32,000 nt of DNA, from contig JAIZWK010000001.1 in NCBI GenBank assembly GCA_021498095.1, positions 3,330,001-3,362,000 on the forward strand, read 5' to 3'. Source of the DNA: Candidatus Harpocratesius repetitus. Its GTDB lineage: Archaea; Asgardarchaeota; Lokiarchaeia; Sigyniarchaeales; Promethearchaeaceae. Numbering within the stretch: position 1 is the first letter of the stretch; each line of letters opens with the position of its first letter. Shown here piece by piece: positions 1 to 27,189 of this stretch. A model generated the notes under the pieces. That model had not been told where the DNA came from and did not search any database. It saw only the letters and a program-made list of their open reading frames with translations. The position numbers and the translations under genes are program-made.

Positions 1-119
1 TTTCTAAAGTTTATCTTTGCCGACTGAAATAATTCTTGGATAAGTTTGATTATTGTCGAAAAATGAAAGATTAAAATGGAAATTCTGTCAAAAATAAAGA
101 AGTTGCTAGAATCTCATAA
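1..119 (+). repeat. Partial copy (cut by window edge) of a dispersed ~297-bp MITE-like non-coding element
   Basis: 1-119 equals the reverse complement of 26774-26892 with no gaps and 7 mismatches (positions 12, 44, 59, 80, 86, 112, 116), i.e. 112/119. Confidence 0.92.
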
Positions 120-17884: not shown

Positions 17885-17902
17885 TTTTAAGAGCTATTAT
17901 TA
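17885..17902 (+). repeat. Segment 1 of the disrupted MITE-like copy (left of IS630)
   Basis: TTTTAAGAGCTATTATTA aligns without gaps to the reverse complement of 27055-27072 (14/18). The call rests on colinearity with segments 2 and 3. Confidence 0.7.
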
Positions 17903-17988
17903 GAGTCTTTTGACTTTTAATTTTTCGACTAATTAAACTCACCTAAATACGTTAATTTTTCAATTTTGATTTATTAGATAAATTGATC

Positions 17989-18402
17989 ATGGTTGAACGC
18001 GTTTGGGTTCATATTCCCCAACCAATCAAAATTAATGATGAATTAAAAAACCAAATAAATGAAATTGTCACTAAATTTATCAAAAAATCAGAAAAACTCG
18101 CCAAACTAACGCATAAAGTAAAAATAACACGAGGAAGGATATACATTACCTATTTATATGAAGTTCCATTAGAACATCGTGCCCGTAAAATAGAGCCACT
18201 GATAAATGGGAAATACGAAGAATTTATTTTTGCGAGAATCACTTTATTTGAAGAAAAATTGACACATTGCACCGCCGATTGGCAACGCCACAACCTAAAA
18301 TGGTACACAGTTCATGAAGGAACTTTAGAAGACTGTTTAAAGTATATTGAAAATGACTTTGGTCCATTTGGCTATCCATTTGATTATAAAGTTATGAATT
18401 AG
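17989..18402 (+). CDS. IS630 passenger protein, DUF3024-like
   Basis: Lies wholly between the IS630 inverted ends, convergent with the transposase (11-bp overlap of 3' ends). FARIT...WQRHNLKW...TLEDCLKYIEND resembles DUF3024 as recalled; family call is inference. Confidence 0.65.
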   Translation: MVERVWVHIPQPIKINDELKNQINEIVTKFIKKSEKLAKLTHKVKITRGRIYITYLYEVPLEHRARKIEPLINGKYEEFIFARITLFEEKLTHCTADWQRHNLKWYTVHEGTLEDCLKYIENDFGPFGYPFDYKVMN

Positions 18403-19452
18403 TTCTATATTTTTCCAAATTACATCGTGATGCTAGTTTTTCATCATCTGAACTCAATTCGTGCAAAGTTTTGGATAAAGAAGATTGAAATTCTTCAAAT
18501 TTTTCATAAAATTCGTTGTATGTTGCTTTACTCTTTGCATCTTTCCAAATACCTTCGATCGGATTCAGATCAGGAGAATAGGGCGGTAAAAACTTTAATT
18601 TTAGACGATAATTGTTTATTTGTAACCATTCTTGAAGCATTTTTGCATGATGCGGTCGTGCATTATCTAAAATCATATAAATTTTATGATTTTCAGGATA
18701 TTGTGCAAGAATTCCGCGAAGAAATTGCCCAAAATTAACTGCGTCTAAATTTTTAATATATTGAAAATATCCGCGCCTTTGGATAGGATCAATTGCACCG
18801 ATTACATTTAACCGTTTTTTTCCGCTGTGTATTCGGAGAATTGGTTTTGATCCCTTTGGTGCCCATATACGACGTGGTTCGGGGGAAAAATAGAAGGAAC
18901 TTTCGTCTTGGAATAAAATCGATTCGTTTTCATTTAAGTTATTTACAAGCTCTTTCATTTCGTGTCGAAATTGATCTTTTTTTTTTCGTCTGCTTTTGCA
19001 GGCATTGGTCTTGGTACTAACAATGTGTAATCCCATCGTTTCATCATTCGCCAAACCCCTGAAATTGACATATCAATGTCATATTTTTTTTTTATATGTC
19101 CTTTTATGTCTTTTAAATGCCAATTACTAAAGGAATATCCTTGTTTTCGGGGAGATTGTTTAATATCTTTCTTAATTTGTTTTTCTTGTTCTTCCGATAA
19201 TAAAGAATAAACTTTTGCACGTTTTATGGGTTGTAAACCTTTCATCCCATCTTTATTCCATTGATGAATCCATTTCCTTACTGATTGAGGGGATGAATGA
19301 ACATGGAAGGCTGTTTCGAATGTAGATTTCCCTAAGTATAGTTGTATGACTGCAAGTATTTTTGTTTTTACTCGAGCATTCTTTTCTTGCTTATAATATT
19401 GCTCTAATTCATGAAAAGGAATATGTTTTATTATAAAAAGGGGTTTTCCCAT
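18392..19452 (-). CDS. IS630 transposase, two ORFs joined by a -1 frameshift (~353 aa fused)
   Basis: OrfA (19452-18955) has HTH/winged-HTH features (VRKWIHQWNKDG, WHLKDI). OrfB has the DDE triad FQDES, LDNA and LNPIEG. A10 tract at the junction. Confidence 0.93.
18976..18982 (-). promoter_or_regulatory. A_AAA_AAG -1 slippery heptamer
   Basis: In frame with OrfA (GAA AAA AAA AAG); a -1 slip yields ...KKK-DQFRHEMK in the DDE frame. The A10 run could alternatively allow transcriptional slippage. Confidence 0.75.
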
Positions 19453-19514
19453 AATTGTAGCGAAGAATCCAAGTGATTTAAAGGTGTCGAAAAATTAAAA
19501 ATCAAAAGACTCTA

Positions 19515-19533
19515 ACATTTGATAGGTTAATAA
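19515..19533 (+). repeat. Segment 2 of the disrupted MITE-like copy (between the two IS elements)
   Basis: ACATTTGATAGGTTAATAA versus reverse complement of 27036-27054 ACATTTGGTAGATTAATAA (17/19). Confidence 0.8.
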
Positions 19534-21088
19534 CATTCACTATGTAATTGATCCTTTTTCTTCTATTTAAGATTAATCTACTCATTTCTCCATGATAATA
19601 TTACTCCTTTCAATTCATGGATGATAAATATAAGGGATACCGATGATTTGAGCATACTCCAAGAAATTCATTCAATTCTAAATCCGCTACGGTAGAATCG
19701 TTTCTTTTAATTATAAATCGTTGTATCTGCCATATATTGTACAAAAAGCACCGTAATCCCATAGTATTCAGCCGGCTATTGCGATCTTGTACCTTCTGTG
19801 CAATGCCTAACCGATTCATTTCAGGAAATGCGATTTCTATTAACCATCTTTGGCGATAGAGATCTCGGATATAATTCTCATTGCCGTGTAGGGTTTTTAT
19901 GCCTGATTTTGAGCAGAACATAACAATTAAGGGAAAAATACGGCTGCTGGCGATTTGTTCATTGATCTTTTTATGATTAAAATCTTGAATGATTTTTTTT
20001 TAAATTAAAAGTGCGTTTAGCAACAAGCAATAGATCGAATTTAATGGGTGAAAATCCTTTCTTTTTTACGTATTTACCCTTAATCATACCTTTTCAGTAT
20101 CTTTTACCTACTCCATTTAAGTAGTTCATGATTTTTTGTTTTGTCTGCGCACATTTTCTTCCAGGTATAATCACGGTTATGTGCTTCTGCTAAAAGAACT
20201 TTAATATTCGTTTACGATAAAACCCTCGGTCAAGCATAGCATATTTTATGGAAAAGCCGTTAGAAACTAGCATCTGATGGACATTGTGAAACAAGGGAAG
20301 TTTATCTTGTCGCTTTTTAATTTTGAAATTTGCAATCATTTGATGAAAATCACCTGAAATAACAGAAAAACTAAGCGTACGATGAACTGTTTTTCCTTCT
20401 TTTTTCCGAAACAATACGAATCGTCTTTATTTTTCTTGCAAGGCGTATCAGTATAATCTGCTATTAACTTTAGATCTGAACTTATAATTTTCAGAGATTT
20501 GAGAATTAAAATATGTGCCAAAAGTACAGAATTCCAAAATTCTTCAATTAAATCTAACTTAGACAATGTTTGAAGACATCAAGAAAAAGCAGGTTGATCA
20601 GGGAAGAATCTCCGTTTTTTACCATTTGAAAATTTGGAAACTGAATATGATTGAAATGAAATATTAGCGCGAGAACACTTTTTTTGAATAATTTCTGATG
20701 TATGTCAGGGCGAAAGTCTTAATATTTGCATACAACATGCAAACAGAACGAAGACCGTGTAGGAAAAGCCGCTTCGTTTTGGAGGCAATTTTTGGAAAAC
20801 TAAAGGATCTACCACTTCCGCAATATCTGAAAGTAACTGTGGATTAATCTGATTAGGAATAATTTTTCCGATATCGGTGGTAGCCGATGGATTTCTCCGA
20901 AGATTTGAGGTCATATCCAAGGGTAAGAAAGCGTAGCTTTTAAATTATTCCCTTTATCTCTCAAAATTGTAATGTATCTTTGCAAAGAAGTAAAATATGA
21001 ACAATTCTACTGAATTTGAATCAAAATTAGGATTTTATAAAAATTTCAAGACAAGAAAATCTATAAAAAACCAATTACATCATTAATG
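19534..21088 (-). mobile_element. Decayed IS4-superfamily (ISH3/IS4-like) element, 1555 bp
   Basis: Imperfect 17-bp inverted ends CATTCACTATGTAATTG / CAATTACATCATTAATG (14/17). TTAATAA is directly repeated on both sides (19527-19533, 21089-21095), whereas the uninterrupted homologous site (27036-27042) has one copy. Confidence 0.85.
19610..20920 (-). pseudogene. IS4-superfamily DDE transposase pseudogene
   Basis: ADYTD, LDRGFY and YRQRWLIE motifs. Manual translation shows four in-frame stops (TGA 20705-20707, TGA 20579-20581, TAG 20190-20192, TGA 20094-20096) and two frameshifts in A-tracts (~20400, 19993-20001). Confidence 0.9.
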
Positions 21089-21187
21089 TTAATAAAAAAA
21101 TAAAAAGCATGCATAATTTACGCATTTACCAACATTCCATCCAAATTTGATTATTGTCGGAAAATGAAAGATTAAAATGGTAATTCA
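21089..21187 (+). repeat. Segment 3 of the disrupted MITE-like copy, with a 137-bp internal deletion
   Basis: 21089-21150 equals the reverse complement of 26981-27042 (61/62), and 21143-21187 equals the reverse complement of 26807-26851 (45/45). The two blocks share AAATTTGA. Confidence 0.93.
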
Positions 21188-21234
21188 CTATGAAAAAGAA
21201 AAATTAGATAACTAATTATAACTAATCTTTAAAA

Positions 21235-21762
21235 TTACTTTCCTTCACTCTTCGCTACTATTAAGCGAGTTAATTCAATAAATGCTTCATCTACATTCGT
21301 GCCATCTTTAGCACTTGTCTCAATATATATTGAACCTTCATCTTCTGCGTAATCTCGACACTCATCGCGATCTATTACTTCTCCTACCTCAGGAATTAAA
21401 TCCAATTTATTGCCGATCAATACAAAAGGTATGTCTCCTGCAAATTGATTAACTTCTGCACGCCAATTTTTAATAGAACCAAAAGTTGAACTACGAGATA
21501 AATCAAATACCAGTAAAGCACCTGATGCACCTTTATAGAAGGTTGTCCGAATAAAAGAAAATCGTTCTTGACCTCCAATATCCCATATACTTAAAGTAGC
21601 GGTTTTTCCAGCGGCATATTCAACATTTTTTGTAAGGATATCAACACCTACAGTGAGTTTATAATCGCGTTCAAATTTAGATTTAATAAATCTATGAATA
21701 AGACTTGTTTTCCCAACAGCAGCAGGGCCACACAAAAGAATTTTTAATTTATATATGCTCAT
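21235..21762 (-). CDS. Rab-like small GTPase, 175 aa
   Basis: GPAAVGKTS, YKLTVGVD, WDIGGQERF, YKGASGALLVFD, NKLD, ETSAK; no prenylation motif; AGGAG upstream. Confidence 0.96.
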   Translation of the reverse strand: MSIYKLKILLCGPAAVGKTSLIHRFIKSKFERDYKLTVGVDILTKNVEYAAGKTATLSIWDIGGQERFSFIRTTFYKGASGALLVFDLSRSSTFGSIKNWRAEVNQFAGDIPFVLIGNKLDLIPEVGEVIDRDECRDYAEDEGSIYIETSAKDGTNVDEAFIELTRLIVAKSEGK

Positions 21763-25736: not shown

Positions 25737-26708
25737 ATGAAACCTTTAGATATCACAATTTTAACAACCACAGAAGATATTGCGTCAATAAATATCCAGC
25801 GTCATCTTTTATCTGAGTTCCCATTCAAACAACAGCTAAATTTAGAGCCTTGGGATTCTGATCTGGTTAACCGTCAATTTTTCTATATGCCAGAATATAT
25901 AAAATCAGATTTAAAATCAAAGACGGCACTAGTTAGGTTTAATTTGATCGAGATTGAACATGAATTTATTACTTTGGATGAAGTAGCAAAACCTAATCAA
26001 ATTCATGGAGATATCTTGATTTATGCCAGCCGACATCGATCTGCAAGTGAAAGAAAGGCATTGCTATGCCATACCACAGGAAATATCAATGATGACAATT
26101 CATTTGGTGGAAGAGCGCGCCATGTTTCGAAAGGAAGTGGAATTTTGATGCATTATTTATATAAAAATTTGCTTCATTTTGTTGAAACCACTCCTAATTA
26201 TGCAGTACCTGTAGATCATGAAGTTGATCATCATGGACCAACGGAATTTCTTCAACCAAGTGGATTTATAGAATTGGGAAGCACCGAAACAGGATGGAAA
26301 GATGCTGAAGGCGCTAAAATTGTAGCAGAAAGCATAATACAAACAGGATGTCAAATTGCCCAAAATCACTACATTCCTGCCCAAATATCTGATTTATCTC
26401 ATTCTTCTTTACTAAATAAACAAAATATTAAAGTAATGATTGGTTTTGGAGGATCTCATTATATGCCCAGTTTTCAGCCAATTATTCCAAAAGGTTATGG
26501 ATTTGCCCATACTGTTCCAAAATACAAAATTATGGCAGTTGATAAACAAATGCTTCAACAACTTATGAAGCAGACTTTAGAGCCTATAGATGGATGGGTA
26601 GTTGATTGGAAAGGATTGAACAGCGCAGAAAAGCAGCATTTAATTCCTCTTTTAGAGCAGACAGACATTCCTATAATTAAAGTTAAAACCCTACGCAAGC
26701 AAACTTAA
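25737..26708 (+). CDS. dtdA: D-aminoacyl-tRNA deacylase, archaeal DTD2 type
   Basis: SRHRS, CHTTGN, EVDHHGPT, IELGSTE..W and GFGGSHY motifs. ATG at 25737 preferred; GTG at 25728 possible. Confidence 0.92.
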   Translation: MKPLDITILTTTEDIASINIQRHLLSEFPFKQQLNLEPWDSDLVNRQFFYMPEYIKSDLKSKTALVRFNLIEIEHEFITLDEVAKPNQIHGDILIYASRHRSASERKALLCHTTGNINDDNSFGGRARHVSKGSGILMHYLYKNLLHFVETTPNYAVPVDHEVDHHGPTEFLQPSGFIELGSTETGWKDAEGAKIVAESIIQTGCQIAQNHYIPAQISDLSHSSLLNKQNIKVMIGFGGSHYMPSFQPIIPKGYGFAHTVPKYKIMAVDKQMLQQLMKQTLEPIDGWVVDWKGLNSAEKQHLIPLLEQTDIPIIKVKTLRKQT

Positions 26709-26773
26709 GCATTCTCTTTTTTCTTTAAGATAAAATGATAATGGCGATTTATACTATAATCAAAAAACAAAAA

Positions 26774-27070
26774 TTAAGAGGTTCTAGCAACTTCTTTATT
26801 TTTGACTGAATTACCATTTTAATCTTTCATTTTCCGACAATAATCAAATTTATCCAAGAATTATTTCAGTCGGCAAAGATGAACTTTAGAAAATATAATT
26901 ATAGGTCGATTTTTGACTATTTTTATTCAAATTTTAGTAGGATTTGATAAAAAAAGTTCTAAATTTTTGATCGACAAATTTCAAATTTGGATGGAATGTT
27001 GGTAAATGCGTAAATTATGCATGATTTTTATTTTTTTATTAATCTACCAAATGTTGATAAAGACTCTTAA
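26774..27070 (-). repeat. Full-length copy of the ~297-bp MITE-like element
   Basis: Ends TTAAGAG...CTCTTAA (imperfect inverted ends, 14/18). Homologous to 1-119 and to the split copy at 17885-21187. No long ORF. Confidence 0.85.
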
Positions 27071-27129
27071 AACAAAACAAAAAAATCAAAAAAATCAAAA
27101 CAAAAATCAAAAAAAATCATAAATCATAA
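27071..27129 (+). repeat. A-tract low-complexity repeat (A4-7)TC upstream of the cupin gene
   Basis: ATC units end at 27087, 27096, 27108, 27118 and 27125. Confidence 0.6.
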
Positions 27130-27189
27130 ATTTGACCACTCTAATTTGAAAATCAAAATTGAATTATAATAATTTGAAGGTGAAGAATA

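Follow-up and report, generated by a model that had tools for sequence, protein, structure and literature searches.

Three copies of a 289-bp repeat, M1, lie in the window, the 32,000-nucleotide stretch of the Candidatus Harpocratesius repetitus genome that was analysed here (genome positions 3330001–3362000). Copy 1 crosses the left edge of the window, copy 2 is complete, and copy 3 is interrupted by two insertion sequences (ISs), IS-A and IS-B (Table 1). Genes for Ras-family GTPases are found beside copy 1 (240–818) and beside the remnant of copy 3 (21235–21762). The genome is 4.36 Mb in length, has 31% G+C content and is available as a single scaffold. An N run near genome position 4226950 shows that this apparent single contig is scaffolded and contains one or more gaps. 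Positions are those of the window unless they are given as genome positions.

Table 1. Copies of M1, their target duplications and the nested insertion sequences in the window
Feature	Positions	Strand	Remarks
M1 copy 1, part in window	1–115	-	Left terminus GAGATTCTAGC... (minus-strand reading) ends at 115
Target duplication of copy 1	116–119	.	ATAA on the plus strand, TTAT in element orientation; twin just left of the window
M1 copy 3, first piece	17887–17902	-	TTAA target duplication at 17887–17890, then right terminus GAGCTATTAT... up to the TA of IS-A
IS-A (IS630 family), nested in copy 3	17903–19512	-	1610 bp; 43-bp inverted ends; TA duplication at 17901–17902 and 19513–19514
M1 copy 3, second piece	19515–19533	-	Last 8 bp, GTTAATAA, duplicated by IS-B
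IS-B	19534–21085	.	Degenerate, short ORFs only; 8-bp duplication GTTAATAA at 19526–19533 and 21086–21093
M1 copy 3, last piece	21094–21205	-	Subterminal ATCC...GTCG block, internal deletion and left-half sequence; final ~11 nt degenerate
Left target duplication of copy 2	26774–26777	.	TTAA, from alignment of flanks
M1 copy 2, complete 289-bp core	26778–27066	+	Left end GAGGTTCTAGCAAC; right end, as reverse complement, GAGTCTTTATCAAC
Right target duplication of copy 2	27067–27070	.	TTAA, from alignment of flanks

A repeat finder pairs positions 1–119 with 26774–26892 as inverted copies that are 94% identical (112/119), exactly as the original prediction had it. The whole core of copy 1 is located at genome positions 3329827–3330115 on the minus strand and shares 95% identity with copy 2 across its 289 bp. 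A 17.8-kb contig from the public sequencing run X1 ends ~28 nt inside copy 1, as assemblies are expected to do on running into a repeat. Directly to the right of the copy 2 insertion site is an A-rich low-complexity stretch (27071–27130) composed of units like AAAACAAAA and ATCAAAAAA.

A third copy had been predicted to be split across 17885–21187. It is real and decayed, and two insertion sequences nested within it divide it into pieces (17887–21205). Copy 2 has short matches within it at 21089–21159 and 21143–21205. IS-A with one TA and IS-B with one GTTAATAA were removed in silico, and the reconstructed copy was aligned to the M1 consensus. The removal restores the M1 right end, which runs from 17891 after TTAA and aligns near-perfectly for ~95 nt from consensus position 1. 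Beyond ~95 nt, the copy has a ~140-bp internal deletion, and its other terminus is degenerate and ends near 21205. The IS-A transposase is encoded in two overlapping frames with HTH (18955–19452) and DDE_3 (18392–19054) domains, and the element was therefore assigned to the IS630 family. A DUF3024 passenger ORF is found within IS-A at 17983–18402. The sole other IS-A copy in the genome (1233521–1234869) is truncated. IS-B belongs to a family of ~10 copies, the intact members of which encode an ISH3-like DDE_Tnp_1 transposase.

The limits of M1 were defined by aligning the copies with their flanks. The core of copy 2 has TTAA on either side, which gives a full unit at 26774–27070. The copies share GAGG at the start and CTC at the end, and the boundaries are sharp. 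The ends are imperfectly inverted (GAGGTTCTAGCAAC and GAGCCTTTATCAAC), and ~10 of the 14 terminal nt agree. The four outer bases differ from copy to copy and are equal on both sides of each copy. Inverted ends had been foreseen in the form TTAAGAG...CTCTTAA; because the core is bounded by GAGG and CTC, this string divides into the target duplication TTAA and the true termini GAG...CTC. Identical 4-bp flanks are present at 27 of the 29 full M1 copies in the genome, against a chance of 0.75% per site at that spacing. All 27 duplications have the form nTAn (ATAA/TTAT, 14; TTAA, 8; ATAT, 3; ATAC, 1; CTAA, 1). The target had been posed as TTAA or TA; it is 4 bp of the form nTAn, neither TA alone nor always TTAA. 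Two internal blocks, ATCC at 75–78 and GTCG at 92–95 from each end, are mirror-symmetric. The full copy contains no ORF of ≥60 aa, as predicted.

BLASTN of 26740–27110 against the genome returned 57 hits, 28 of which span the same query interval with sharp ends. The trimmed core identified 29 full copies and ~15 further partial copies with unrelated flanks, many more than chance would give. The BLASTN search that had been proposed for copy number and end definition thus returned many copies with sharp common termini, not few copies or ragged ends. Pairwise identity among the M1 copies has a median of 93% and reaches 100% in some pairs; copy 2 shares only 95.8% with its closest M1 relative. The copies are predominantly intergenic, in line with the original prediction: 26 of 29 have no overlap with ORFs of ≥120 aa, compared with 7.6% of random 289-mers. 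An IS701-like IS at genome 3405824–3407309 (4 copies, ~5-bp duplication) abuts an M1 copy, with only the 4-bp M1 duplication between them. Several other ISs are found 10–50 bp from M1 ends, and mobile elements accumulate in the same gaps.

Two sister families, M2 and M4, share the landmarks and the 4-bp duplication with M1. M2 was found by a terminal-motif search. It is 289 bp in length, has 29 full copies (for example, genome 703248–703536) and has ends GAGGTTATAGCAG and GAGGCTCTAGCAAT. M4 is 23 bp longer than M1 (312 bp), has 45 full copies (for example, genome 1859304–1859615) and prefers AATT as its target (27/39). Identical 4-bp flanks are present at 26 of 29 M2 copies and 39 of 45 M4 copies, against the same 0.75% chance. 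The M1 and M2 consensus sequences are ~54% identical without a change in length, and the left half of M1 is homologous to the right half of M2. Without gaps, all six ends of the three families have GAGG at 1–4, ATCC at 75–78 (ATCG at one end) and GTCG at 92–95. A joint M1 and M2 profile identified 83 pieces, which make up 0.47% of the genome. The description of M1 as high-copy is therefore a relative one, with 29 full copies, or ~60 when M2 is included.

The proximity of M1 to small-GTPase genes was also evaluated at genome scale. Two Ras-family genes do adjoin M1 in the window, as had been noticed, but the genome has 53 Ras-domain matches, and 2–3 of the 83 M1 and M2 pieces are within 300–1000 bp of one, compared with 1.3–2.6 expected at random. 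The adjacency is a coincidence.

M1 also occurs in composite with M4, which is inserted at an internal AATT. Two such composites (genome 479211–479813 and 2359475–2360079; 603 and 605 bp) are 95% identical to each other and occupy separate loci, one flanked by an ATAA duplication and the other by CTAT. A pair of M1 ends is therefore able to mobilize a unit twice as long. Genome 1859304–1859931 contains two M4 elements head-to-tail with one AATT shared between them. A separate, IS6/ISL3-like IS family (7 copies, ~1.6 kb; genome 2063706–2065312 and ~25 shorter loci) has MITEs of its own. These carry the first ~434 bp of the IS, and an M2 element has inserted into one of them (genome 1493874).

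An autonomous partner of M1 was sought in the genome using the M1 end sequences. A mismatch search, short-word BLAST and the M1 and M2 profile identified none; these searches failed because the ends of the partner diverge after ~14 nt. A seeming partner at genome 1486543 lacked a mate and proved to be a match by chance. The genome was then scanned for GAGG-N-ATCC-N-GTCG at MITE spacing. The scan gave 183 matches, 171 of which are known MITE ends, and 4 of the other 12 come from one element type. Two of these four face each other 1825 bp apart and define ISx (genome 2233279–2235103). ISx has a TTAA duplication and a single intact ORF of 496 aa (genome 2233566–2235056); besides the one intact copy, the genome contains a truncated one and two left ends that stand alone.

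The left 100 nt of ISx have 60% ungapped identity to M1-left and M2-right, compared with 28.6 ± 4.7% for random pairs (maximum 46% in 5000 pairs), and 12–13 of the first 14 nt match both. The right end is 43–46% identical to the corresponding M1 and M2 ends (random maximum, 46%) and has all three landmarks, so that the similarity of ISx to the MITEs is carried mainly by its left end and the landmark geometry. No similarity was detected between the M1 interior and ISx, and M1 is therefore not a simple recent deletion derivative. The ISx transposase passes the Pfam DDE_Tnp_1 cut-off (31.9 versus 23). Among NCBIfam models, it scored 32.3 bits to IS1182 (cut-off 270) and 20 bits to IS1634, and it had no hit to IS5 models. 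In a large protein collection, 87 homologues were found, and every source name is Asgard. The closest named one is from Harpocratesius (82%), followed by Promethearchaeota and Sigynarchaeota, and many are encoded on contigs of ~1.8–2.3 kb. One homologous IS from another metagenome is 1838 bp in length and encodes a transposase that is 58% identical. It has an ATAT duplication, perfect 17-nt ends (GAGGATCTATCAAGTTT; termini GAGGATCTATCAAG) and the same landmarks at both ends. The end architecture is thus a feature of the family, and the ATCC and GTCG blocks are for this reason probable docking sites for the transposase. Judging from these shared ends, ISx is likely the partner of M1 and its transposase source.

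Several other elements of the genome were rejected as partners. The IS6/ISL3-like families F15 and F3 and the ISH3-like family of IS-B make an 8-bp duplication, the IS701-like family F9 makes a ~5-bp duplication, and IS-A duplicates TA. The families F5 and F10 make 4–6-bp duplications in A-runs and have ends CAGTTCTCAAC. Pfam models DDE_Tnp_1_2 and DDE_Tnp_4 had no match in the genome. A search for inverted ends of the form GAG...CTC flanked by equal 4-mers identified mainly a 1859-bp IS (genome 3573257–3575115), which was demoted as a partner of M1 because its ends lack the landmarks. Separately, the genome has a single-copy IS1634-family element at 1698498–1700556, which encodes a 541-aa transposase (251 bits) and has perfect 18-nt ends and AATT flanks.

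It is unlikely that M1 is a MITE moved by a transposase other than that of ISx, whether by the 1859-bp IS or by an enzyme now gone from the genome. The 1859-bp IS is present as a single copy with 47-bp ends that start with GAGGG. It thus begins with GAGG like M1 and makes a 4-bp, AT-only duplication (AATT), and its 387-aa transposase is homologous to that of ISx (33% identical); ISx itself is intact in one copy only. However, the ends of the 1859-bp IS have neither ATCC nor GTCG and are 35–50% identical to the MITE ends, whereas the left end of ISx has nearly all of its first 14 nt in common with M1-left and M2-right. Its AATT target also fits M4, not the nTAn targets of M1 and M2. Given the missing landmarks and the AATT target, the 1859-bp IS is more likely the helper of M4.

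M1 is very probably a non-autonomous DNA transposon (MITE) of an Asgard-associated DDE IS family, with ISx as its likely transposase source. It is small and non-coding, has inverted ends and a target duplication of fixed length, is dispersed in many copies, has an autonomous relative and shows evidence of mobility, all of which are features of MITEs. M1 would keep only what a transposase needs: inverted termini of the GAGG type and the ATCC and GTCG blocks ~75–95 bp inward, which probably serve for docking. The 496-aa DDE_Tnp_1 transposase of ISx would bind both M1 ends and then excise or copy the element, by a cut-and-paste or a copy-and-paste route. Insertion would take place at a 4-bp target that is AT-rich and centred on TA, and staggered cuts at the target, once filled in, would leave the 4-bp duplication. 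From the similarity of the ends, we infer that ISx itself, rather than a relative of ISx, supplies the enzyme.

The original prediction of a MITE is upheld by the ends, the 27 of 29 target duplications, the autonomous relative and the empty sites described below; its alternative, a REP-like or non-coding RNA element, is not. It is highly improbable that M1 is a functional non-coding element under selection, either a REP-like repeat or a structured small RNA gene. Such a role could account for the intergenic placement, the conservation of internal blocks between two families that are only ~54% identical and the exactly kept length. However, a search of Rfam with M1 at E up to 1 returned no match, and the fold energies of its RNA are within the range of shuffled sequences on both strands (z = -1.27 and +0.30). 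Target duplications and empty sites mark insertion events, and the conserved blocks, arranged in mirror symmetry, recur at the ends of the autonomous IS. M1 was not found in 40 related genomes, two of them congeneric, where the proposed BLASTN search gave only chance-level matches of 30–50 nt.

Insertion sites with and without the element were compared in contigs of public runs, in congeners and within the genome. The strain in run X1 is near-identical to the window: a contig of 5193 nt shows 1 difference. A 691-nt X1 contig of normal depth spans the copy 2 site. Its first 354 letters correspond to 26424–26777 and its last 291 to 27117–27407, and 46 unplaced letters remain between them. These equal the length of 27071–27116, a low-complexity stretch that was skipped in read matching (27066–27116). 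By arithmetic on the coordinates, not on the contig letters, the contig is 293 bp shorter than the window, which corresponds to the 289-bp core plus one TTAA. The 17.8-kb X1 contig joins 17900 to 19513 without IS-A and provides a second insertion difference within 10 kb. Two congeners keep the gene pair of D-aminoacyl-tRNA deacylase (dtdA) and cupin with MITE-free spacers of ~75 and ~110 bp, which are too diverged for base-by-base alignment. Paralogous empty sites of M2 are exact, with a single TTAA. A possible empty site of M1 within the genome, at 2706785, was rejected, as it reflects only homology of a neighbouring M2 end.

Judging from this comparison of strains, the movement of M1 seems very recent. 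Had it been by copy-and-paste, a near-identical donor should remain; the nearest relative of copy 2 is 95.8% identical, which points to cut-and-paste movement or to an older polymorphism. These findings suggest ongoing movement of M1 in an Asgard population that is cultured or enriched. The X1 contig without copy 2 and the scaffolded state of the genome could also be read as signs that the M1 copies, or copy 2 alone, are assembly artefacts, but this is the least probable of the readings. What the contig lacks matches precisely one element and one 4-bp target, a pattern that marks transposition rather than misassembly. Each of the 29 copies has flanks and a duplication of its own, and an M1-like sequence (268 nt, 9 differences) is also present in contigs of the independent marine-sediment metagenome X4.

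Prokaryotic MITEs include the Correia elements of Neisseria and the SM elements of Sulfolobus. M1 resembles the prokaryotic MITEs of DDE ISs in its length of 289 bp, lack of genes, inverted termini, fixed target duplication and tens of intergenic copies, and in sharing its ends with an autonomous IS of the same genome. Unlike the usual prokaryotic MITE, it has long, multi-part ends (landmarks at ~1–14, 75–78 and 92–95 nt), a length of exactly 289 bp that is kept in two families of ~54% identity, and a partner in an Asgard-associated transposase clade that is recognised by no curated NCBIfam IS model. The termini of ISx, which start with GAG, and its 4-bp duplication centred on TA resemble those of IS5 (target YTAR). 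ISx is also like IS5 and IS1182 of the IS4/IS5 superfamily in its DDE_Tnp_1 domain, and IS1182 is its best NCBIfam hit. It differs from them in scoring far below the IS1182 cut-off (32 versus 270 bits), in having no hit to an IS5 model, and in its length of 1.8 kb with structured ends of ~95 bp.

The central TA of the target is also seen in MITEs of the IS630/Tc1-mariner type, and IS-A, an IS630 element with ends that start GAGTC, is nested in copy 3. M1 differs from this type in its 4-bp duplication, of which positions 1 and 4 covary on both sides, and the ends of IS-A have no match to M1 beyond GAG. REP and BIME elements are palindromes of ~20–40 nt with no target duplication, in contrast to the 289 bp, target duplications and empty sites of M1.

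Prokaryotic MITEs derived from DDE ISs have been reviewed (PMC10969869) and surveyed in a census (PMC11602168). The 2024 census used MITE-Tracker on 8220 archaeal genomes and names none of the families, and its supplements may contain such sequences. A 2026 survey of archaeal ISs mentions MITEs in passing only and has no Asgard MITE family. The paper that named Ca. Harpocratesius repetitus reports 4% repetitive sequence and does not contain the word MITE, and a 2024 paper on Asgard mobile elements does not mention MITEs. M1 is thus an ordinary kind of element for which no published description was found in the literature searched, and the expectation that it is undescribed in this lineage fits that literature. 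New here are the target rule, the contig-based empty site at copy 2, the composite of M1 with M4, and the end landmarks in a homologous IS elsewhere.

MITEs are routine, and M1 leaves the general understanding of such elements unchanged. M1 and M2 together (0.47% of the DNA) account for part of the repeat load of a Loki-type genome. For annotators, the termini of M1 and of its two related families are now exactly defined, together with a rule for their targets, and M1, M2 and M4 are tied to a transposase clade without a name in curated models. Continued movement of M1, if true, bears on genome stability in slow Asgard cultures. To our knowledge, no genetic system is at present available for Asgard archaea; the ISx transposase with M1 ends is a candidate start for transposon mutagenesis in them. 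M1, M2, M4 and their 1.8-kb partners may tentatively be viewed as an unclassified IS family, so far found only in Asgard archaea, with ~95-bp, three-part ends of fixed geometry and moving today in enrichment culture, although this broader proposal is doubtful. If true, such a family could become a native transposon tool for Asgard archaea.

Two side observations were also made. In another metagenome, a homologue of the ISx transposase adjoins a major-vault-protein-like gene (Vault_3, MVP_shoulder), and the landmark pattern was not found at the ends of the homologous IS there. Genome 700143–702452 encodes a reverse transcriptase of the group II intron type (RVT_1, RVT_N and GIIM), which is part of a 3-copy repeat.
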